From Candidatus Heimdallarchaeota archaeon (GTDB lineage Archaea > Asgardarchaeota > Heimdallarchaeia > JABLTI01), in assembly GCA_018238155.1 (NCBI GenBank), contig JABCTZ010000036.1:128001-192000 (forward strand): 64,000 nucleotides of DNA, in the 5' to 3' direction. The position numbers and the translations under genes were made by a program. The first letter of the stretch is position 1. Each line of letters starts with the position of its first letter. Below the pieces are notes generated by a model. It made no database searches, had not been told where the DNA came from, and saw only the letters and a list, made by a program, of their open reading frames with translations. This document shows positions 1,789 to 44,923 of the stretch, piece by piece.

Positions 1789-3021
1789 TTAAAGTGATCT
1801 AATGACTTCCATTGGTTTTACTCTGGCAGCTTTGATACCAGGTATTAATCCTGCAACCATTCCAAGACCTAAACCGAAACAAAGAACTTGTACAACAATT
1901 TGCCAAGTAATAATCATGAACGTTTGAGAGGCACCCATTTGTACAAGAGTAAGTAACCCAGCACCTAATCCAAAGCCTACAATTGAACCTAATAATCCAA
2001 TAATAATCGATTCAAGAACAATATCGAAGAGTATTGTTCTATTCTTCCATCCAGTAGCTTTCATTATTGCGAATTCTTTCATTCGTTCGGTTACACCCAT
2101 TAATTGAGCAACAACAATTGCCATTCCACCTGCAACAATAACAATAATAATCAGAATATTTTGCATAATGGCAAAATTCTTCAATAAATCGCTTACAGAT
2201 TCCAAATGTTCTCCCGTAATACTTACTTCCAATTTTGGTTCTAGCAACTTCAACTGTTCACCATATTTCTTTGTTTGATTTACACTATCTGAATCAAAAC
2301 GAATGCTTACGTAATTGTAACCAGTTTGTTCATATGGTAAATACAAACTGTTTAATGCAAGTCCAGTAGCAACTGACATTTGTATATTTGTACTCATCAT
2401 TGTCGTTGGGTCATCTTCATCCGTCTCAAAGATACCTACAGTAGTTAAATTAACTGAGTAAGAAAAATTTGTCATGAATTTCACCTCTTTTCCTACTGCA
2501 AATAATCCATCTGATCCTTTAGCAATATAATCTGCTACAATAATTTCGAAGTTATTTTCGTAATTTTTTCCATCTACAATCTTTGTTGATGGACCTTCAA
2601 ATTGCGCATCATCTACTATAGCTATTCCTGCTACATTTATTGGAACAAAAGGCATTGAAGGACCAAATCCACCCTGCTCTATAGTGATATTTGGCATGAA
2701 TTGTTCAAAACCTAAAACGTAAATTTCTGGACTAATTGCCTCAATCATATCACTATCTTCTATTGTCATAATAATATCTGTAATATTGGTTGGTAATTGT
2801 GAAATCGTTATCTCTTTACCATATTCAGAAACTTGTATATCCCCAAGCGTTTCTGCAATAGTATCATCTAATAGATTATCAAATCCTGCTGAAGCTGATG
2901 ATAATACAACCATTAATGCTATTCCAATCGCAATTCCTGTAATAGATAAACCTGCTATTAGTTTCTTGCGAAAAGCGTTCTTCAATGCAAACCGGATTGT
3001 CTGGAAACTCATTTTTGCCAC
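1789..3021 (-). CDS. ABC transporter permease (FtsX/MacB-PCD type)
   Basis: N-terminal TM, large extracytoplasmic domain, ERMKEFAIMKATGW motif, three C-terminal TMs, P..KAARVKPMEVIR; adjacent to the ATPase gene. Confidence 0.92.
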   Translation of the reverse strand: MAKMSFQTIRFALKNAFRKKLIAGLSITGIAIGIALMVVLSSASAGFDNLLDDTIAETLGDIQVSEYGKEITISQLPTNITDIIMTIEDSDMIEAISPEIYVLGFEQFMPNITIEQGGFGPSMPFVPINVAGIAIVDDAQFEGPSTKIVDGKNYENNFEIIVADYIAKGSDGLFAVGKEVKFMTNFSYSVNLTTVGIFETDEDDPTTMMSTNIQMSVATGLALNSLYLPYEQTGYNYVSIRFDSDSVNQTKKYGEQLKLLEPKLEVSITGEHLESVSDLLKNFAIMQNILIIIVIVAGGMAIVVAQLMGVTERMKEFAIMKATGWKNRTILFDIVLESIIIGLLGSIVGFGLGAGLLTLVQMGASQTFMIITWQIVVQVLCFGLGLGMVAGLIPGIKAARVKPMEVIRSL

Positions 3022-3082
3022 CTAAATTCCTGTAAATAATCATCTTTATAATGTGTCAATTTTGTTGTGGTTTACTTATAAA

Positions 3083-3106
3083 TTTGTTCACACTAGTGTA
3101 AACAAA
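3083..3106. promoter_or_regulatory. Probable TetR operator between divergent promoters
   Basis: TTTGTTCACACT|AGTGTAAACAAA, a 24-bp palindrome with one mismatch, between TATA-like boxes (about 3075-3082 minus, about 3114-3122 plus). Confidence 0.7.
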
Positions 3107-3153
3107 CAGCAATCTTTATATTAACCTTAATAAATACACTTAGAAGAACAATA

Positions 3154-3849
3154 ATGTCGGAAGACGGATCAAAATTAAAGAAAGAACAAAGGCAAGAATC
3201 GATATTAGATACAGCTTTGGAGTTAATGTGTACAAAAGGTATCAATGGTACTACTATGAGAGGAATTGCCAAAGCTGAAGGAATTTCTGAGACATTACTA
3301 TATCGTTTTTTCAAAAACAAAAACGAATTATTGTTTGCACTATTTGAAGCGAAAATCGTTAATATTGCTTATACAATACAAGAACTAATTGAAACAACTA
3401 AAGGGATGATACCTGATCCTGTGGAAACTCTTCCACTTATCTCTAAATTAGTTCAAAAAAGAATTGATAAAAATCATAAAATCTTTAATTTGATTCTCAA
3501 AGAACGAAAGGCTTTGAGAGCAATCATTGAGAAAGAAGGTGGATTTCAAATGATTTTTAAAGATAAAATCAAGACTCATACATTTATGGGTTTAATGAAA
3601 GATATTGCTAATAATAAAAGCTTAACGAATTATTTTCAAAGGTGTAAGGATGCAGGAAATCTAAGAGATGATTTAGAACCAGTGCATTGTGCAAATCTAT
3701 TTATTAAGATACTTTGGCCAACACCTATTTTTGATAATAATTTTACTCAACCAATTAATCCAATGTTACCAGATGCTCATAGCCAAAAAGCATTTGAAAC
3801 AAATATGAAAATTCTAATGTATGGTCTTGCGCCTGACAAAAAACATTGA
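3154..3849 (+). CDS. TetR/AcrR family transcriptional regulator
   Basis: ILDTALELMCTKGINGTTMRGIAKAEGISETLLYRFFKNKNEL HTH; divergent from the ABC exporter. Confidence 0.92.
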   Translation: MSEDGSKLKKEQRQESILDTALELMCTKGINGTTMRGIAKAEGISETLLYRFFKNKNELLFALFEAKIVNIAYTIQELIETTKGMIPDPVETLPLISKLVQKRIDKNHKIFNLILKERKALRAIIEKEGGFQMIFKDKIKTHTFMGLMKDIANNKSLTNYFQRCKDAGNLRDDLEPVHCANLFIKILWPTPIFDNNFTQPINPMLPDAHSQKAFETNMKILMYGLAPDKKH

Positions 3850-5672: not shown

Positions 5673-7106
5673 TTATTCTTTTGCAGATTCTATCCATTCT
5701 CCAACTTCTTCTAAATTAGGAATCAAGTTGCTTCTTTTCAGAAATTTTTTCACATGTTTATCTTTGATAGCGACTTGCACTGTTTTCCAAAGTTTACTTT
5801 GTTTCTGTTTCTTAAGATCTGCTTTGGTACGAATGCCTGCACTATAGAGAATCACCACATCATGCACACGTAATCTCCAAATTTCAAGCATTAGATTAGT
5901 TTCGATAATCATTCGTGAAATATCTTCGACTTTGAGCTGATTATAATTTAGTTTCTCCTGTAGCAGATTGACTATTTCATCTGGAGTTGTAACCAATAAA
6001 TCCAGCACTTTGTTGATTCCTATCTTTTTAAATTTGTCAGCAATTGCTTTTGTCATTTCAGCAACGTCACTGATATCTGAATTCAAAGTGATAGCTGGAG
6101 TGAATCTGGATTTTTTAGGGAATTTTAATTTTGGTTTAGCTTCAATAATTACTACTTTTTTCTCTGTCTTCAATGGGATTGCTTTAAGAGACTTTGGTAA
6201 ATTGACGGGTTTAATTTTTCCATCTTGGAGAACTTGCAAATAATATCTATCATCTTGCAAGAGAGAATTTTGTACTCTTTTTGTTTTGTAAAATTCATTT
6301 TTCATTTGTTTTGTTGTTCTCTTGCGCATTTTCTTTTCTTGGTTTTGTCGATTTCTTTCTGCTTGTGCAGATAATTTTATTCTTGATTTCGTTGAACCAA
6401 GTTTAATTTTACCTGGATCAGGATTTCCTGCTTCAGCTATTGCTTTGAGATATAGTGAAGCTGTTCCTTGAATTGCCGAAGCAATTCTTTGAGAAATCTT
6501 TGTTTTTAAGACATCATTGTATCCTTTTCCCCAATTACATTTTTGACCTTGTTCAAGGTCATAATTTTCTATCACAAAAACATACGAGTTATTCGCTTCA
6601 TTTGCAGCTTTTATAACAAAATCTTTGATTTTATTTATTTGTTCTGGAGGATTAATTACCATGTCTTTTCGTAAATCTAAGTAAATTTCTGCCGCTCCCC
6701 ATTCTGTGAAAGAATGGATTAGTCCTTCTTCTTCTGTTTGACCAGTGTGTAATGGATGATTAATATCCGCAAAATAATGACTCATGACTCCTGCAGCATA
6801 AACAGCTTTCTCCCATTTTTTATTCTTTAATGCAGATACGGTTTTATTAAACCAATCATAAACCGCTTTTGGTGCCCCACCCCATTTTTCCGGCATATAT
6901 AAAACATGGTTTTTGTAATCTTTAAAAAATTCATCTGGTGCTGTTGATCCTTCCAAAAGCCTTTCATAATATTTTAGAAAAAGGTTAGCTATATTTTCTT
7001 CTAGAAATTTTACTGCTTCAATAGCAACTCGGTGATGAATACTTCGAGTAGTACGATTTTCAAAAATTAAGTTAAATATTTTCTCATCCATGTAATCACT
7101 ATCCAA
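5673..7106 (-). CDS. Zn-dependent phospholipase C / S1-P1-like domain fused to C-terminal HhH (DUF4332-like) domains
   Basis: SIHH, GSTAPD, SHYFADINHPLHT, HSFTE Zn ligands; C-terminal IADKFKKIGINKVLDLL and LYSAGIRTKADL HhH-like repeats. Confidence 0.75.
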   Translation of the reverse strand: MDSDYMDEKIFNLIFENRTTRSIHHRVAIEAVKFLEENIANLFLKYYERLLEGSTAPDEFFKDYKNHVLYMPEKWGGAPKAVYDWFNKTVSALKNKKWEKAVYAAGVMSHYFADINHPLHTGQTEEEGLIHSFTEWGAAEIYLDLRKDMVINPPEQINKIKDFVIKAANEANNSYVFVIENYDLEQGQKCNWGKGYNDVLKTKISQRIASAIQGTASLYLKAIAEAGNPDPGKIKLGSTKSRIKLSAQAERNRQNQEKKMRKRTTKQMKNEFYKTKRVQNSLLQDDRYYLQVLQDGKIKPVNLPKSLKAIPLKTEKKVVIIEAKPKLKFPKKSRFTPAITLNSDISDVAEMTKAIADKFKKIGINKVLDLLVTTPDEIVNLLQEKLNYNQLKVEDISRMIIETNLMLEIWRLRVHDVVILYSAGIRTKADLKKQKQSKLWKTVQVAIKDKHVKKFLKRSNLIPNLEEVGEWIESAKE

Positions 7107-38427: not shown

Positions 38428-40146
38428 ATGTCAGAACAGAGATTCCCTTATTTCAAGTCGACCATGGTTAGTTTTGGGTATTTCACCAACAACCTTACGT
38501 GGTCCGCTTTTAATATCTTCGTTCCACTAATTTTAAGCGATAATTTAAAGGCTCTACTTGGTGATGTTCCTTACATCAATACACTCATTGGATTAATAAT
38601 GATTTTAGATAATATTGCCTCTATTATTATACAACCTTATATCGGAGCACTATCTGATCGTATTTGGATAGCAAAATTGGGAAGAAGAATGCCATTTGTG
38701 ATTATTGGTATTCCTCTTGCAGCATTTTTCTTTGGCCTTATTGGTACATTTCAATCAACAATGTTTGTCGTCTTAATCGGTATTTGTGGTTTTAATATTA
38801 GTATGGCATTTTACAAGTCACCAGTCATGAGTTTAGTTCCAGATTTACTCCCAAGAGAGTACAGAAGTCAAGGTGCAGGTGTACTCAATGTTGTTGGTGG
38901 AGTTGCAAGCATATCTGGACTATTGATTGTTTCAAGTTTAATAGTAAATCATAGCAAATTTGCTTTTTGGGCACTCTCAATAATAATGATTATTTGTTTA
39001 GGCATTTTATTACTGACTGTTCGTGAAAAGAAAGATATTGAAATTGAAAAAAGAGAGAAGAAAATTGGTCTTTTTTCATCTATCAAACGCATAGTGAAAG
39101 ACCGAAATTTACCACTCATATTCATGTTATGTTCAGTCTTTTTTCACACAGCAGGGTATAGTGTAGTTGAAACATTCATTAGTAGATACTCAACTGAATT
39201 ACTAGGTTTCCATCCTAGTACAGCCGGAAAAATTCTTGCTGCTTTCATTGGTTTTACTGTTATTGCTGCTTTACCTGCAGGTCTTGTAGGAAAAAGAATT
39301 GGTGCATTAAATGCAGTTGTTATTGGCATAGTCGGATTTACTGTCTCACTTATACCTTTGACTATTTTCAGTCTTCTACCTGATTTAACTATTATGAAAG
39401 ATGTATTAACACTCAATACTTTACAATCACCAATATTCACGTTGCAATTTTTACTCTACTTTCTAATAATATTCATTATGGGTTTTAGTTACTTGTTATT
39501 ATCAATTAATTCAATAGTAGTTATTTGGAATTTTGCTCCCGATAAAGAGACAGCAACATATACTAGCTTCTTCTATGTTGCTTTACATTTAGCAGCAATA
39601 CTCAGTCCATTTATCGCAGGAAGTATTTTCGATTTATATGCTTTCAATTTATTTAAGAATGGTGATGATACCTCAGGTTTAAGAATTATGTTTGTGTATG
39701 CTATTGTCTGTTTTATGTTAACGATTATCTTTATTTCTCTAGTTAAAGTATTTAGAAATAAACAATTGAGGGAAATTGGTGATAAAGAAACCTACATCAG
39801 ACATCGTTTAGAACAGAAGGAATATCCTCTAGAATACATTCCAATGCTTCTATTTGGAATAGGTACACGAAGGCGGAACGCAATCCTCGTTTTGCGAAAG
39901 GAGCATCAAGAAGAACAAAAGGATATAGATGAAAAAATACGGAAATTGCGAAAAAAGCAAATGTATGTAGTTGAAAACTTAAGTGATGATACAAGAAATA
40001 TAGAGGAATTGCAGAAGAAAACAATTATTGAACACAAACAAATGAAGAAAGAAATGACAAAAGAACAAAAGGAAAAAATCAGAGAATTGAGACAGGATAT
40101 CATTGAAAAGAAGATCAAGAAAAAATTGGAAGAAGAATACGATTAA
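38428..40146 (+). CDS. MFS transporter (GPH/sugar-type) with C-terminal coiled-coil extension
   Basis: QPYIGALSDR..GRRMPF motif A, about 12 TMs, about 130-aa E/K-rich tail. Confidence 0.88.
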   Translation: MSEQRFPYFKSTMVSFGYFTNNLTWSAFNIFVPLILSDNLKALLGDVPYINTLIGLIMILDNIASIIIQPYIGALSDRIWIAKLGRRMPFVIIGIPLAAFFFGLIGTFQSTMFVVLIGICGFNISMAFYKSPVMSLVPDLLPREYRSQGAGVLNVVGGVASISGLLIVSSLIVNHSKFAFWALSIIMIICLGILLLTVREKKDIEIEKREKKIGLFSSIKRIVKDRNLPLIFMLCSVFFHTAGYSVVETFISRYSTELLGFHPSTAGKILAAFIGFTVIAALPAGLVGKRIGALNAVVIGIVGFTVSLIPLTIFSLLPDLTIMKDVLTLNTLQSPIFTLQFLLYFLIIFIMGFSYLLLSINSIVVIWNFAPDKETATYTSFFYVALHLAAILSPFIAGSIFDLYAFNLFKNGDDTSGLRIMFVYAIVCFMLTIIFISLVKVFRNKQLREIGDKETYIRHRLEQKEYPLEYIPMLLFGIGTRRRNAILVLRKEHQEEQKDIDEKIRKLRKKQMYVVENLSDDTRNIEELQKKTIIEHKQMKKEMTKEQKEKIRELRQDIIEKKIKKKLEEEYD

Positions 40147-40544
40147 ATGAACGGATTCAATCTTCATTTTAATATCTATTTTCCTTTTGGTGCTTCTTTT
40201 TTTTGCCTAAATTTATTCTATTTCAGTTGTAGTAGAAGAGAATTAGTAAAAAAATAGGTTGATCTAAAAGCATGTGTTAAGCTTGAAAATATTGTTAAAA
40301 TACAATACAAAAATCTCTCATAAAAGAGTATTTTTGTCTTTACTCTTTTTTGAGAATAAACAACTTACTAATTTATTAATCTATTAATTCATTGAAAAAA
40401 CTTTCTTTTTTCTAATAAATCAATCTCTCTTTAATTCATTTATCTATTTATTTCATAACCCTTTTTGCCACAAAAAAAAGCTATTTATATCAATTCTTAC
40501 AATAAAAGTAGATATACAATTAATATTGAAAGGAGAAAAATTAA

Positions 40545-41036
40545 ATGAAACCACTAAGCCTCTGTTTAGTACAAATGGGAGACAAGGGACTTGAATTAGT
40601 ATCATCACATCCAAAGGTTTTACCAAAAGAAGTTCTAACTGAAATCACCTATAAATCAATGCCAATGGGTGCAAAGCCTGGAGAATTTGTTTCTTCATCT
40701 GTGAGTGATCTATTCTATTCAAGCTATATTTTCTCTTTACCAAGAGAAGATTCTCGAGACAATATTTGTGCTATTATCGCTATTTTTAGTGACATGAAAT
40801 ATAACATTGATGGAATTAGAAAAGTTTTCTCGTTTTTAATTAAGGAATTAGAAACAAAGACTCTTTTAAAATTAGATCTTATGGAGGAAATCTTACCTAA
40901 TCTCTATACTGGATTCAGTAAAGGAAACATTAGAATAAAGATTAGTTCAGTTGCAACAATCTCGATTGATTTTGAAACTAAAGAAGAAGAACCCAAAGAT
41001 GAAACTACTGATCTTGAAGATGATTTATGGAAATAA
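40545..41036 (+). CDS. Longin/uDENN-like protein (putative GTPase regulator)
   Basis: Pattern LCLVQMGDKGLELVSSHP..I..KSMPMG..beta-beta..R..ICAIIAIFS typical of uDENN/longin folds; first gene of the GTPase operon. Confidence 0.6.
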   Translation: MKPLSLCLVQMGDKGLELVSSHPKVLPKEVLTEITYKSMPMGAKPGEFVSSSVSDLFYSSYIFSLPREDSRDNICAIIAIFSDMKYNIDGIRKVFSFLIKELETKTLLKLDLMEEILPNLYTGFSKGNIRIKISSVATISIDFETKEEEPKDETTDLEDDLWK

Positions 41037-41065
41037 TGAAAGACTAAGAAAAGGAGTGTAATTGA

Positions 41066-41608
41066 GTGTCATTTCTACGAAATCTCTTTAGAAGAAAAAG
41101 AACAAAAGAAGTCGATATAACGATTTGTGGTTTAGCAAGTGCTGGAAAAACTACAATTGTAAAATACCTTGAAACAGGTCAATTTATTGATACACAACCA
41201 ACCATGGGTATTAATCGTGGTGAGACAATTAGTGTTGAAAAACTTGAAATAAATATTTTTGATCTTGGAGGTCAAGATGATTTCAGAGTTCTCTGGCCTG
41301 AAGTAAATGAGAATTCAGATGGAATAGTTTTTGTTGTTGATAAGCACGATACAATACAATTCGAAGAAGCCCGTTTGACATTTCAAGAAATTGTCAAATC
41401 ACAAATACATGAAGATGTAATCGTACTTGTTTTATTACACAAAAATGATCTGCCTGGCGGAATGTCTCGAAGTAGTTTTATTCAAGAATTTGATTTAATT
41501 GATTTATCTTTCAAATGGGCTTGCTATGAAACTTCTGCAAAAACTGGTGAGAACATCTTTGAAGCATTTAGATGGTTTTTTGATCAATTGATGGAGGAAT
41601 CTTCCTAA
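41066..41608 (+). CDS. Arf/Arl-like small GTPase
   Basis: Amphipathic N-helix MSFLRNLFRR; G1 GLASAGKT, G2 PTMG, G3 DLGGQ..FRVLW, G4 HKND, G5 ETSAK. Confidence 0.92.
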   Translation: MSFLRNLFRRKRTKEVDITICGLASAGKTTIVKYLETGQFIDTQPTMGINRGETISVEKLEINIFDLGGQDDFRVLWPEVNENSDGIVFVVDKHDTIQFEEARLTFQEIVKSQIHEDVIVLVLLHKNDLPGGMSRSSFIQEFDLIDLSFKWACYETSAKTGENIFEAFRWFFDQLMEESS

Positions 41609-42465
41609 TGGTTAATGCTCTGACATTATATTATATTATTTTTTCATGGCTAACAGTTATTGTGAATATTGTTTTGGCAAGTGCTTTGTTACGAAACTTC
41701 ATCAGAAAAAAGACTCTTGGAACGATTATTCTTTTTGTCTCATACATGCTAATTGGTTTTAGTGCAATTTTAGCTGCAATTCATTACTCAGTAGCTTCAT
41801 TCAATATTAGTATAGAATTCATTGGTGTAAGTCAAACTCTAGCAACACTTTTTCCATTAATCGCATTACTGCAAATTTATGTTTTCTCTTGTAGACATAT
41901 TCTGAAAGATAATGAAGTTCTAAAGAACTTCCATTTAATTATCTTCTCTATAATAATTGGTAGTGTATTTACGATTTATTTGATGGCTGTATTTGGAATC
42001 ACACCTCAGCAACCTGGTTTCTTGTTTGCAGAAGATGTATCTCCATTATGGTATCAGATGTCAAGAAGTGATGTTGCAAATACAAGTCTCTTTAATCTTA
42101 CAGTACGTGCAAGTGTTATGGTTATTACCACCATTCAAATTTATATCAACTTGAGAATAATTATTAGAGCATTTATACTCTCTCGAAGAACTGATAGAAT
42201 TATTCGTAAACGCGGATTACAACTAATTGCAACGGGGTTATTAGTTTACCTTACAGCTGGAATAGTCATTGCTTTAGAAATGGCAATTTCATGGCCTGAA
42301 GGTAGCGCAATGCCAACAATTTTATGGACTTTGCGAAAGGTGATATTCATAACATCCTATCTAATCCTTTACTTGGGTTGGATTATGCCTGATTGGTTCA
42401 GACGTCGGCTACGAGGGAAAACTTGGTTTGAAATGCAATATAAAACAGTATCAAAACAATCTTAG
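41608..42465 (+). CDS. Seven-transmembrane protein translationally coupled to the GTPase
   Basis: Seven hydrophobic segments, long TM4-TM5 loop, basic TM5-TM6 loop, PDWFRRRL after TM7; TAATG overlap at 41606-41610. Confidence 0.8.
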   Translation: MVNALTLYYIIFSWLTVIVNIVLASALLRNFIRKKTLGTIILFVSYMLIGFSAILAAIHYSVASFNISIEFIGVSQTLATLFPLIALLQIYVFSCRHILKDNEVLKNFHLIIFSIIIGSVFTIYLMAVFGITPQQPGFLFAEDVSPLWYQMSRSDVANTSLFNLTVRASVMVITTIQIYINLRIIIRAFILSRRTDRIIRKRGLQLIATGLLVYLTAGIVIALEMAISWPEGSAMPTILWTLRKVIFITSYLILYLGWIMPDWFRRRLRGKTWFEMQYKTVSKQS

Positions 42466-42719
42466 GGGAATCATTCCTCTAACTCTACTTTTTTTGTTCT
42501 GAAAATTTTTCTACTAAAAATTAAATATCACTTTATTGATATTGATTACAGTGTCTTTAAATAGATGATTGATAAATATACTCTTGTTAGTTAGATAATT
42601 TCTAATTAACGGTGAGTGAGTTGACCTAACTCGGTTTTTAGAGTTTAAAATTCGATGTGGATTGTGAGTTGACCGACCGTCCCTTTACTAGTTCACTGTG
42701 AATTTAATAGGTGAATAAA

Positions 42720-43197: not shown

Positions 43198-44388
43198 TTA
43201 TTGAGGGAATCCTTCGAAGCCTAACCTGATCATTCGCACAAATTGCGATATCATCTTTAATATTGTTCCACCAATAATTACCCATATAACAATTGTTGCT
43301 ACTGTCTGGAATGTATCTGCGTTAATATAATTTTGAACAAGTCCAAATATCCAATTGTAGGCAATTTCACGTCGATAAAGAATTGCATGATAAAGTGCGA
43401 TATTCACTCCTCGAGGTGCAAGACCAAGAAAGAGCAATGCTTGCTGTAATCCAATTCTTCTACCAACTAACGCTTGGAAGAATTGAATGAATCCTAATAC
43501 CAATCCTGTTACACCTGTAAGTGCAAACCAGATTTTCAATTGATCTGGTAGAAAGTCAAGAAAAGGCATGAATGGTAGAATTATCGTAACTACACCAAAA
43601 GCTATTCCAAAAACCCCTTCAGAAAGATAATCTTTTCCAAGATGTTTGTGTTTCTTCCCCAATCTAGGTGTTGGCTCTGTAATAGTTCTTACGGGAATTT
43701 CCTTCATTACTTGAGGTTCAACTCTTGGCTTAGAGAGTGGGATTGCTTTGTAATCTTCTTCATCTTTAGTGTAAGTTACAACTTCCTCTTCTGTCTTTGG
43801 TTTCCATGATTTGAAACCATCGAAAGAAATATGAAAATCAAACATCCTTCCAAAAGAATCGAAATCCTCAGGAATATATCCCTCATGTGAGAGATAGATG
43901 AATAGTACTGTTATAAGCACCAATGCAATTGAGACGCTCATTATCGAACCTGATATCCAGCCTGAAAAAAGTTCTTTAACACCAATACTAGCATTGACTG
44001 CTGAAGGTATTCTAATAAGCATAACTAAGAAATTAATTCCAAGTAAGACTGCACAAACGATAATGACAACTTTAGTGTATCCTATCCATAATTCCTCCGT
44101 AATGAAGAATTTTGGTTTACCTCGTCGTTTATATTCTCCAGCAATTTTGCTGGGAGTACCCATCTGATCAATAACTTGTTTTATATCTCCAATTGATGGA
44201 TCTTCTCCATCTGCCAATTCTGTTGCTCTATCCCAAATATGTGTTTCAAGTTCTTCTAAGATATCATCAACGTCTTTTTTCTCATCTTTTAACCAGAATG
44301 GTAGCTTTCTTTCAACTTCATCCAAGAATTCTTTGATAAGTTTTTGATCTTCATTTAAAAATTCAAAATTATTTTTGTTTTCATTCAT
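43198..44388 (-). CDS. HAAS-domain membrane protein (PadR partner)
   Basis: IKEFLDEVERKLP..DILEELETHIWD..VIDQMGTPSKIAGEY followed by multiple TMs. Confidence 0.8.
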   Translation of the reverse strand: MNENKNNFEFLNEDQKLIKEFLDEVERKLPFWLKDEKKDVDDILEELETHIWDRATELADGEDPSIGDIKQVIDQMGTPSKIAGEYKRRGKPKFFITEELWIGYTKVVIIVCAVLLGINFLVMLIRIPSAVNASIGVKELFSGWISGSIMSVSIALVLITVLFIYLSHEGYIPEDFDSFGRMFDFHISFDGFKSWKPKTEEEVVTYTKDEEDYKAIPLSKPRVEPQVMKEIPVRTITEPTPRLGKKHKHLGKDYLSEGVFGIAFGVVTIILPFMPFLDFLPDQLKIWFALTGVTGLVLGFIQFFQALVGRRIGLQQALLFLGLAPRGVNIALYHAILYRREIAYNWIFGLVQNYINADTFQTVATIVIWVIIGGTILKMISQFVRMIRLGFEGFPQ

Positions 44389-44392
44389 TTTA

Positions 44393-44923
44393 TCAAATCC
44401 TCTGATTAATTAACTCCTCTACAAAAATTCCGCATACTTCGCAGTATTTTGCTTCAACATCTAATTTGATTTGATTTGCACAATTAGGACAATACATAAA
44501 CTCATTTTCTGGAAGTTCGATTCCAAATTCCATCAAGGGAGATATTGCTTCAAGAAGTTTAGCAAAAAATCCTGTCATATGATTTAGTAATTTATGTCCT
44601 GCATCCGTTAAGATATAATATCTTCTCGGGCGACCCGTTAATTCTTTCTTTTCAGATTTGAGAACACCATCTTTCTCCATTTTTCGTAAAAGCGGATACA
44701 ATGTACCTTCCTCAATTATCAGCACATTGTTTGTTTCTTGTTCCAATTGTTTTAGTAATTGATATCCATAAGTTCCTTCTTCGGAACATCGTTTGAGGAT
44801 TTGTAGAACTGTAACTGTAGATATTCCTCGCAGTAATTCTGATTCAAAGCTTTCAACGTATGTTCTAAAGTGGTCATCACCGATTAATGCTTCCGGGTGG
44901 AATGATTTTACTTTTTTTAACAC
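44393..44923 (-). CDS. PadR-family regulator with C-terminal zinc ribbon
   Basis: YGYQL, EEGTLYPLLRKMEKDG, RPRRYYILTDAG; CPNC..CEVCG. Confidence 0.92.
   Translation of the reverse strand: MLKKVKSFHPEALIGDDHFRTYVESFESELLRGISTVTVLQILKRCSEEGTYGYQLLKQLEQETNNVLIIEEGTLYPLLRKMEKDGVLKSEKKELTGRPRRYYILTDAGHKLLNHMTGFFAKLLEAISPLMEFGIELPENEFMYCPNCANQIKLDVEAKYCEVCGIFVEELINQRI

Follow-up and report, generated by a model that had tools for sequence, protein, structure and literature searches.

A conserved longin, Arf-type GTPase and seven-helix membrane protein gene cassette in a Heimdallarchaeota genome

A window of 64,000 nucleotides (nt) from a Candidatus Heimdallarchaeota archaeon (assembly GCA_018238155.1, contig JABCTZ010000036.1, positions 128001-192000; contig 15 of a 4.08-Mb, 46-contig genome that is 90.7% complete, with ∼32% G+C) contains three adjacent genes coding for a longin (P1), an Arf-type small GTPase (P2) and a seven-helix membrane protein (P3). 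We refer to this unit as the cassette. It is a real and conserved module that has been duplicated as a block, and its products are probably a functional trio. The explanation we favour, with roughly even confidence, is a cognate membrane-bound Arf switch, in which P3 is the dedicated membrane partner of P2 and P1 is a longin GTPase-activating protein (GAP) with an arginine finger. Modules of a small GTPase with a longin or roadblock protein are known, and what is added here is a dedicated seven-transmembrane (7TM) partner. No published description of the three-gene unit was found in open-access papers and bioRxiv.

Gene structure, conservation and duplication of the cassette

All three genes are on the forward strand at 40545-42465, arranged as the initial annotation had described: they are co-oriented behind a TATA-like box, P1 and P2 are 29 nt apart (41037-41065), and the P2 stop codon TAA (41606-41608) overlaps the P3 ATG (41608-41610) by one base in the sequence TAATG. 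The motif GGAG or GGAGG is present 8–12 nt ahead of all three starts (40532-40535, 41053-41056 and 41593-41597), the GGAGG of P3 lying within the 3' end of P2. The features, with genes called as open reading frames (ORFs), are as follows.

40484..40490, + strand: TATA-like box TTTATAT after an A-rich stretch resembling a B recognition element (BRE), ∼55 nt before the first ATG; candidate promoter, from sequence
40545..41036, + strand: P1, longin, 163 amino acids (aa); ORF, NPRL2-like model
41066..41608, + strand: P2, Arf-family (ArfR-like) small GTPase, 180 aa, GTG start; ORF, Pfam Arf
41608..42465, + strand: P3, seven-helix membrane protein, 285 aa; ORF, hydropathy and model
42489..42495, + strand: T7 run, candidate archaeal oligo-T terminator, 24 nt past the P3 stop; from sequence

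On these letters, the TTTATAT box would act as a promoter and the T7 run as a terminator. A hairpin past the P3 stop was rejected as a terminator stem because it has only 3–5 bp and a minimal loop.

Cassette loci were collected by identity look-up (five loci), through one very distant family member and from species-representative genomes (15 loci), in addition to the paralogs of this genome. The order and orientation P1, P2, P3 are preserved in 21 of 21 complete loci, with P3 identity falling as low as 26%, and the very distant P3 member (E 6e-8) is again part of a trio. Spacing is similarly constrained; in nearly all loci P1 and P2 are separated by 11–69 nt and P2 and P3 by -4 to +14 nt, the two exceptions being cases of ORF calling. 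Since the trio is conserved in every complete locus examined, it is more than a chance neighbourhood, and the survey of gene neighbourhoods proposed in the initial annotation yields one conserved, co-duplicating unit.

This genome, which has 48 Arf/Ras-type matches, contains six full trios (contigs 15, 20, 10, 29, 41 and 39). It also has remnants or split cassettes: a longin and 7TM pair on contig 21, a lone GTPase from the cassette subfamily, 46% identical to P2, on contig 13 (86298-86855), and a lone P1-like gene longer than P1 on contig 22 (9354-9971). Maximum-likelihood trees of P1, P2 and P3 recover the same main clades, with support of 92/91, 99/98 and 100/99 for the 6/14 group split, and every paralog of this genome pairs with an ortholog from other metagenome-assembled genomes (MAGs). 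Because the three gene trees agree in their main clades, the sequences indicate that duplication of the whole block preceded the divergence of these species, and that no partners were swapped between the main clades. The evolutionary rate of P3 is about three times that of P1 and P2, with a median tip length of 0.34 versus 0.12–0.13.

The 61 close homologs of P3 are all from Asgard sources, and an exhaustive profile search among 1.84 billion representatives places the small, Asgard-restricted P3 family at 84 clusters. Its longest member is 398 aa and the family therefore includes no fused kinase or cyclase; forms of P3 fused to output domains were sought in the same search and none was found, the 398-aa member having no Pfam domain. 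Strong matches to P3 come only from the window's own family (eight of 11 genomes) and from a portion of a second family in the same class, in which 17 of 31 genomes have any P3 match and roughly half of those score below E 1e-60. We note that a full cassette is also present on an 80-kb contig (DATKZI010000020.1, locus L019) from a MAG that bears the label 'Candidatus Bathyarchaeia', which points either to a wrong label or contamination of the bin or to transfer of the cassette beyond the Asgard archaea.

The GTPase and the longin

P2 matches the Pfam Arf model (PF00025) at 127.2 bits, relative to a gathering cut-off of 22.3 (E 6e-37), over model positions 5-173 of 174. It has the motifs GLASAGKT, TQPTMG, DLGGQ..FRVLW, HKND and TSAK, among them the DLGGQ..RVLW hallmark listed in the initial annotation. 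Among 20 cassette GTPases the invariant positions are G22..G27-K28-T29, T43-x-P45-T46-x-G48, D66-x-x-G69-Q70, W77, K126-x-D128 and T156-S157-A158. The catalytic Gln70 of P2 is intact, and F3, L7 and F8 of the N-terminal MSFLxxLF are conserved across the same 20 sequences. Residues 2-10 have a hydrophobic moment of 0.83; 11–20% of shuffles reach the observed values in the two stretches tested.

In a similarity ranking of Protein Data Bank (PDB) matches, P2 is closest to Arf1 (E 4e-30) and to 8OUN (E 5e-27), the crystallised Asgard protein GerdArfR1 (10.1101/2024.02.28.582541). By sequence it is a GTPase of a known kind, the Asgard ArfR/AArf proteins such as HodArfR1 and GerdArfR1 (8OUN/8OUM). 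P2 aligns with GerdArfR1 and with Arf1 over its full length of ∼180 aa, and shares the non-myristoylated N-terminal helix (F3, L7, F8) and the DxxGQ..W interswitch signature. The P2 subfamily differs in that it is always flanked by longin and 7TM genes. Membrane binding of ArfR through the N-terminal helix has been published (10.1101/2024.02.28.582541), and the texts of that report (Vargova et al.) and of PMC11914678 (Zhu et al.) do not mention operons, neighbouring genes or transmembrane partners.

The G4 motif of P2 (41438-41449, residues 125-128) reads H-K-N-D and not N-K-x-D. Its first residue is His in P2 and in eight of the 19 other aligned cassette copies, and Asn in the remainder. Judging from this substitution, loss of the guanine-contacting Asn could shift nucleotide affinity or exchange rate.

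P1 gave no match in a Pfam search, and a PDB sequence search returned just nanobodies and CsgE at E >0.1. Its structure model (mean predicted local distance difference test, pLDDT, 80) comprises a longin fold followed by a C-terminal hairpin and a disordered acidic tail. The modelled strands (E) and helices (H) are E5-12, E15-22, H28-38, E48-53, E56-65, E73-81, H88-104 and H110-126, which corresponds to beta-beta-alpha-beta-beta-beta-alpha-alpha. NPRL2, the catalytic arginine-finger subunit of GATOR1, leads all of the structural searches through its N-terminal domain (Foldseek E 1e-6; VIA-align Z 14.1–16.7; ESM Atlas Npr2, TM-score 0.72–0.73), and in the VIA ranking it stands above FLCN (10.9–11.5), DENN (10.2–10.6), SNARE longins (9.7 or less) and SMCR8. 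The initial assignment of the first gene to the longins is therefore upheld by both the fold and the NPRL2 matches. Among the Atlas matches are Asgard longin-Arf fusion proteins.

Arg71 of P1 is invariant in two alignments (30 and 20 sequences), and is located in the loop between modelled strands 56-65 and 73-81, just before strand 5; the reference positions for arginine fingers of longin GAPs are NPRL2 Arg78, FLCN Arg164 and SMCR8 Arg147. The NPRL2-like fold together with the invariant Arg71 makes a GAP role for the modelled longin plausible. Comparable longin GAPs are GATOR1 NPRL2-NPRL3 acting on RagA/B, FLCN-FNIP on RagC/D and C9orf72-SMCR8, and P1 resembles them in its NPRL2-like fold, with the invariant arginine in the loop before strand 5 as a candidate finger. 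Its candidate partner is of the Arf family, as for SMCR8; longin GAPs use such an arginine, and C9orf72-SMCR8 acts on Arf1 (PMC8213707). The differences from GATOR1, FLCN and SMCR8 are that P1 is a stand-alone protein of 163 aa, lacks a DENN or other C-terminal domain, and is accompanied by no second longin gene. Its tail has a conserved L-W-K/R end in which the Trp is invariant; the last 25 residues have a net charge of -8 in the window copy, and the tail charge is negative or zero in 19 of 20 copies.

Two further loci encode proteins that may be related to this longin type. On contig 15, 6.8 kb past the window (198762-199538, - strand; 2760-3539 of locus L047), a 259-aa protein matches the P1 profile over its N-terminal 155 residues (E 1e-11), and is followed by a 163-aa ORF with no Pfam match; no cassette-type 7TM match is nearby. 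In one paralog group (5677-7074 of locus L004, and one JGI contig) the trio is followed by a protein of ∼270 aa and then by one of 465 aa with a faint Pfam SMCR8_C match. From that match, the 465-aa protein could be a further DENN/longin-type regulator tied to the cassette.

The seven-helix protein

P3 contains seven hydrophobic segments, and its model (pLDDT 88.9; predicted TM-score, pTM, 0.81) has helices at 4-34, 37-64, 69-99, 103-128, 167-194, 198-226 and 235-259, a beta-hairpin within the 38-residue loop between transmembrane segments (TM) 4 and 5, and two short helices past TM7. The TM5-6 loop is basic (SRRTDRIIRKRG), and PDWFRRRL follows TM7. By eye count there are ∼20 Lys and Arg residues in the predicted inside loops versus two outside, and three N-x-S/T sequons are all predicted outside. 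Hydropathy, the positive-inside rule and the structure model together predict an N-out, C-in topology. The seven segments, the long TM4-5 loop, the basic TM5-6 loop and PDWFRRRL had all been listed in the initial annotation and stand; its description of the post-TM7 segment as helix-8-like is not supported as regards amphipathicity, the hydrophobic moment of 0.24–0.43 being matched by 46–58% of shuffles.

Conservation of P3 is strongly polarised, at 0.72 in the cytoplasmic loops versus 0.34 in the outer loops, and 12 of 12 invariant residues, together with the majority of conserved positions, are at the cytoplasmic face. Conserved motifs include K-x-T-x-G in intracellular loop 1, Y-x-F-x-x-R..D at the end of TM3 and Y-x-G-W-x-x-P..W at the end of TM7. 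In the alignment, this is the pattern expected of a protein with a fixed surface towards a conserved cytoplasmic partner and a variable surface outside. In one clade of cassettes (L019-L021 and L028-L030) the C-terminal tail of P3 is 20–40 residues longer and ends in V/F-V-E-V/I-S/T-D/E; this extension is absent in the window's clade.

No Pfam family was found for P3 at E 0.1 or below, no model of HisKA_7TM or of a G-protein-coupled receptor (GPCR) family such as 7tm_1/2/3, Frizzled, Dicty_CAR or STE2 is among the matches of 33 family members at E 1 or below, and a PDB profile search returned no sequence match at E 10 or below. Structural comparisons point to two groups of proteins. Foldseek against the PDB returns only GPCRs, with E 8e-3 or worse and TM-scores of 0.33–0.56. 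VIA-align against 48,161 chains gives a top 50 that is all GPCR-fold at Z 13.7–16.0, values to be read relative to a helical-bundle background of the tool of about Z 14, with a root-mean-square deviation (rmsd) of 3.6–6.8 Å (3.6–5.4 Å in most rows) over 221–254 residues. These matches are mostly GPCRs, including GABA-B and Ste2, and also TMEM87A and LYCHOS (8wr3_B, Z 13.7); there are no rhodopsins among them. Neither is there a retinal-binding Lys in mid-TM7, where the only conserved basic residue of TM7 is Arg243 (Lys in three sequences), near the outer end.

The best structural matches in the ESM Atlas are bacterial HisKA_7TM modules of kinases and cyclases (TM-score 0.65–0.68, rmsd 3.4–4.1 Å, 229–240 residues), followed by 7TMR-DISM and MASE4, and two distant P3 family members have sub-threshold Pfam matches to 7TMR-DISM_7TM (E 0.006–0.009). 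P3 has a predicted GPCR-like topology, but in the fold comparison suggested in the initial annotation HisKA_7TM (0.68) fits it better than do GPCRs (0.44–0.56). We do not claim membership of HisKA_7TM, because alignment of P3 by hhalign to 11 Asgard HisKA_7TM regions (probability 2–18%, E 0.0014–0.02, TM1-3 in register) is only marginally above the reversed and shuffled controls (E 0.11–0.81); furthermore, the PF16927 (HisKA_7TM) model has no match in this genome at E 1e-3 or below. P3 also differs from the HisKA_7TM and 7TMR-DISM sensors of histidine kinases and diguanylate cyclases in having no fused output domain; its output would be the separately encoded GTPase.

With eukaryotic GPCRs, P3 shares seven helices, the predicted N-out, C-in arrangement, a conserved Arg at the cytoplasmic end of TM3 and genetic coupling to a GTPase, but no sequence homology to them was found, and P2 has neither a helical domain nor beta/gamma partners. 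Of the class-A microswitches, the P3 alignment contains only the invariant Arg96 (C-R-H) at the end of TM3; TM6 has no CWxP, and in place of NPxxY there is Y255-x-G-W-x-x-P261. We therefore treat P3, on its model, as a separate family with the general architecture of prokaryotic 7TM receptors and GPCRs, and not as a demonstrated member of either. An October 2026 preprint (10.64898/2026.10.28.762692) describes Asgard proteins whose structures group with those of GPCRs, and makes no link to GTPases.

A 612-aa protein encoded 12 kb past the window (contig 15, 204882-206720; 8883-10721 of locus L047) has a multi-pass membrane N-terminal half and a C-terminal S-adenosylmethionine (SAM) methyltransferase domain, and adjoins a stand-alone 205-aa paralogous methyltransferase. 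It was considered as a fusion of 7TM, longin and methyltransferase and rejected, because neither its N-terminal nor its middle part reached an hhalign probability of 1% with the profiles of P3 and P1.

Proposed joint action of the three products

The proposed interaction was examined by a single three-chain prediction of P1, P2 and P3 with paired alignments, in which P3 was the scored partner. P3 scored 0.44 (0.39–0.46 between runs), whereas the best of three controls, in which the GTPase was replaced, scored 0.13 and the other two 0.00. The runs share at least 78% of their contacts, and the pLDDT of the partner is at least 72. In the benchmark, 58 of 80 solved complexes and two of 110 mismatched pairs attained the mark, although just seven of the 80 did so at scores of 0.60 or lower, along with both of the passing mismatches. 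The multimer check called for in the initial annotation thus lends weak support to the trio; it modestly raises the odds of a contact between the 7TM protein and the GTPase, and is silent on affinity and direction.

Under the cognate Arf switch that we favour, the three products would be made together from a single transcript, as supported by the stop/start overlap and the internal ribosome-binding sites. P2, when GTP-bound, would bind the membrane through its N-terminal amphipathic helix like other Asgard ArfRs. The basic cytoplasmic loops of P3 and its post-TM7 segment would form a docking surface to which P2 is recruited, and where it is probably activated, comparable to Sec12 for Sar1 or to a receptor for a G protein. 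P2 would then cycle at the cytoplasmic face of its own P3, and P1 would turn it off by means of the arginine finger Arg71, analogous to GATOR1 (NPRL2 on RagA), FLCN, and SMCR8 on Arf1. The fast-evolving outer loops of P3 differ among paralogous cassettes, and each of the approximately seven cassettes per genome would act as a channel apart from the others, through a matched trio of its own. The gene structure, the family and fold assignments, the conservation and the block duplication are observed; in this scheme we infer the binding, the direction of regulation, whether by a guanine-nucleotide exchange factor (GEF) or by a GAP, and any ligand.

Several observations weigh against this explanation. 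The predicted complex passes weakly, on a score without the interface, and no downstream effector is encoded in the unit. Arg71 is a candidate equivalent of NPRL2 Arg78, compatible with the aligned ranges (P1 model 1-148, NPRL2 chain 5-164). At the position of the 'GP' motif, before or at strand 2, which has been proposed to mark GAP-type longins (PMC12290439), P1 reads G15-L16; the Gly is invariant and the next residue is Leu or Ile, never Pro. Eukaryotic longin GAPs are longin heterodimers and the unit encodes one longin only. Weaker P3 relatives of 240–270 aa occur phylum-wide, and in other Asgard lineages mostly stand alone. Finally, contig 21 (5505-6931) has a longin gene and a 7TM gene separated by ∼90 nt that contain no GTPase gene, an arrangement that fits a tie between the longin and the 7TM protein at least as well; the orphan GTPase on contig 13 may serve this pair.

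This last arrangement counts in favour of an alternative in which P3 mainly binds the longin GAP, holding or releasing it, so setting the time that P2, bound to the membrane by its own helix, spends in the GTP-bound state. LYCHOS (GPR155) is said to bind GATOR1, and LYCHOS or SLC38A9 with GATOR1 and Rag at the lysosome resemble the cassette in combining a multi-pass membrane protein, an NPRL2-type longin GAP and a small GTPase. P1 is specifically NPRL2-like, the fold search with P3 also retrieved the GPCR-like domain of LYCHOS, and the acidic tail of P1 with its invariant Trp would face a strongly basic cytoplasmic surface on P3, a putative charge complementarity. However, replacing the GTPase cut the P3 score in the weakly supported prediction from 0.44 to 0.13 even though the longin was present. 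The likeness is also one of architecture only; P2 is of Arf type and not Rag, and there is no Ragulator or TOR. We consider such GAP control by P3 unlikely. Slightly more doubtful in our estimate is that P3 is instead the regulated target of GTP-bound P2 (a channel, transporter, scramblase or membrane shaper), with the longin serving as a GEF or platform in the manner of DENN, Mon1-Ccz1, TRAPP or SRX-SR-beta. In its favour, longin and roadblock platforms mostly act as GEFs or in an effector-like role (PMC10933270), the fold matches of P1 include DENN and SNARE longins, P1 lacks the GP motif, and the unit offers no other effector. Yet no transporter or enzyme family matches P3, whose top fold matches are receptors and sensors, its conservation is at the cytoplasmic surface and not at a membrane-embedded pore or site, and NPRL2 ranks clearly above the GEF-type longins among P1 matches.

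Marginally less probable still, in our estimate, is a P3 that detects an external ligand and acts on P2 as a GDP/GTP exchange catalyst, like a GPCR on G-alpha, in a system evolutionarily related to GPCR/G-protein signalling. The N-out, C-in 7TM arrangement and wholly GPCR-fold VIA top 50 are in its favour, as are the invariant Arg96, the conserved cytoplasmic face and variable outer loops, the sensor modules that are the nearest predicted structures, and docking of P3 that hinged on the GTPase, in a prediction of weak support. Against these must be set the lack of any Pfam GPCR match in the 33 members or PDB sequence match, Foldseek E values no better than 8e-3, VIA scores near the tool's background, the better fit of HisKA_7TM modules, and the lack of CWxP, NPxxY, a G-alpha helical domain, G-beta/gamma and an evident ligand-binding domain. 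The 'proto-GPCR/G-protein' ancestry advanced in the initial annotation is accordingly not sustained; P2 is a plain 180-aa Arf type, and the term is an analogy without evidence of homology. Its description of a 'self-contained signalling cassette' is likewise overstated, because the cassette encodes no output or effector. Most improbable, in our view, is mere co-expression of three products that take part in one process and form no direct complex. The weak complex support is in its favour, but the strict gene order, the coupled translation and the block duplication are all maintained among paralogs with as little as 26% identity, and the cytoplasmic face of P3 is highly conserved.

Two other systems are instructive for the favoured Arf switch. 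Sar1, of the Arf family, has an N-terminal amphipathic helix; Sec12, embedded in the membrane, activates it and fixes its site of action, and Sec23 is its arginine-finger GAP. Here the working logic only is compared, as Sec12 is a single-pass beta-propeller protein and Sec23 is not a longin. MglA-MglB and other prokaryotic pairs likewise place a small Ras-superfamily GTPase gene beside a gene for a roadblock/longin-fold regulator, but a 7TM partner is missing from these, MglA does not belong to the Arf type and MglB is a homodimeric roadblock protein.

The genes flanking the cassette are also partly conserved. Directly upstream in the window (38428-40146, + strand) is an MFS transporter gene (Pfam MFS_1, 6e-37) whose product has a Lys/Glu-rich, probably coiled-coil C-terminal tail of ∼170 aa; at locus L005 a 56% identical MFS gene is likewise upstream of the cassette. 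Convergent on the cassette (43198-44923, - strand) is a gene pair whose products are a 176-aa regulator of the PadR family, with a zinc ribbon at its C-terminus, and a membrane protein of 396 aa with a HAAS domain. The same pair is downstream of the orthologous cassettes L002/L003, L005, L006 and L008, where a metallophosphoesterase gene is next, and is not found downstream of other paralog groups. This may be no more than shared synteny, or the pair may be functionally linked to the cassette.

The eukaryote-like small GTPases of Asgard archaea number in the dozens, and almost nothing is known of what regulates them natively, of their membrane partners or of what they do. In the Lokiarchaeon MK-D1, small GTPase genes are generally outside operons with roadblock or longin genes, and operon context is generally no help in pairing GTPases with regulators (PMC10933270); the cassette is thus an exception within the Asgard archaea. 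It supplies matched trios of GTPase, longin and membrane protein as candidate partners for archaeal Arf GTPases, and because it was duplicated as a block it also provides natural specificity controls in the form of cognate and non-cognate partners. GAP activity, GEF activity and binding are therefore directly testable with small proteins. A 2025 survey described GP-motif, GAP-like longins in Heimdallarchaeia and raised the question of which GTPases they serve (PMC12290439), for which the cassette is a concrete longin/GTPase pairing, albeit one in which P1 lacks the full GP motif. Should P3 prove to be a true ligand-sensing receptor and exchange catalyst for the Arf GTPase of its operon, with the longin as GAP, which we think improbable, the cassette would be a complete prokaryotic receptor/G-protein/GAP circuit. 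With approximately seven such channels running in parallel per genome, and in the archaea most closely related to eukaryotes, it would then plausibly be a precursor of signalling by receptor-coupled GTPases, or else have been invented independently. If P3 does control the GTPase, no earlier receptor-coupled small-GTPase system would be known from a prokaryote, and the finding would bear on the origins of Arf, Rag and G-alpha regulation.

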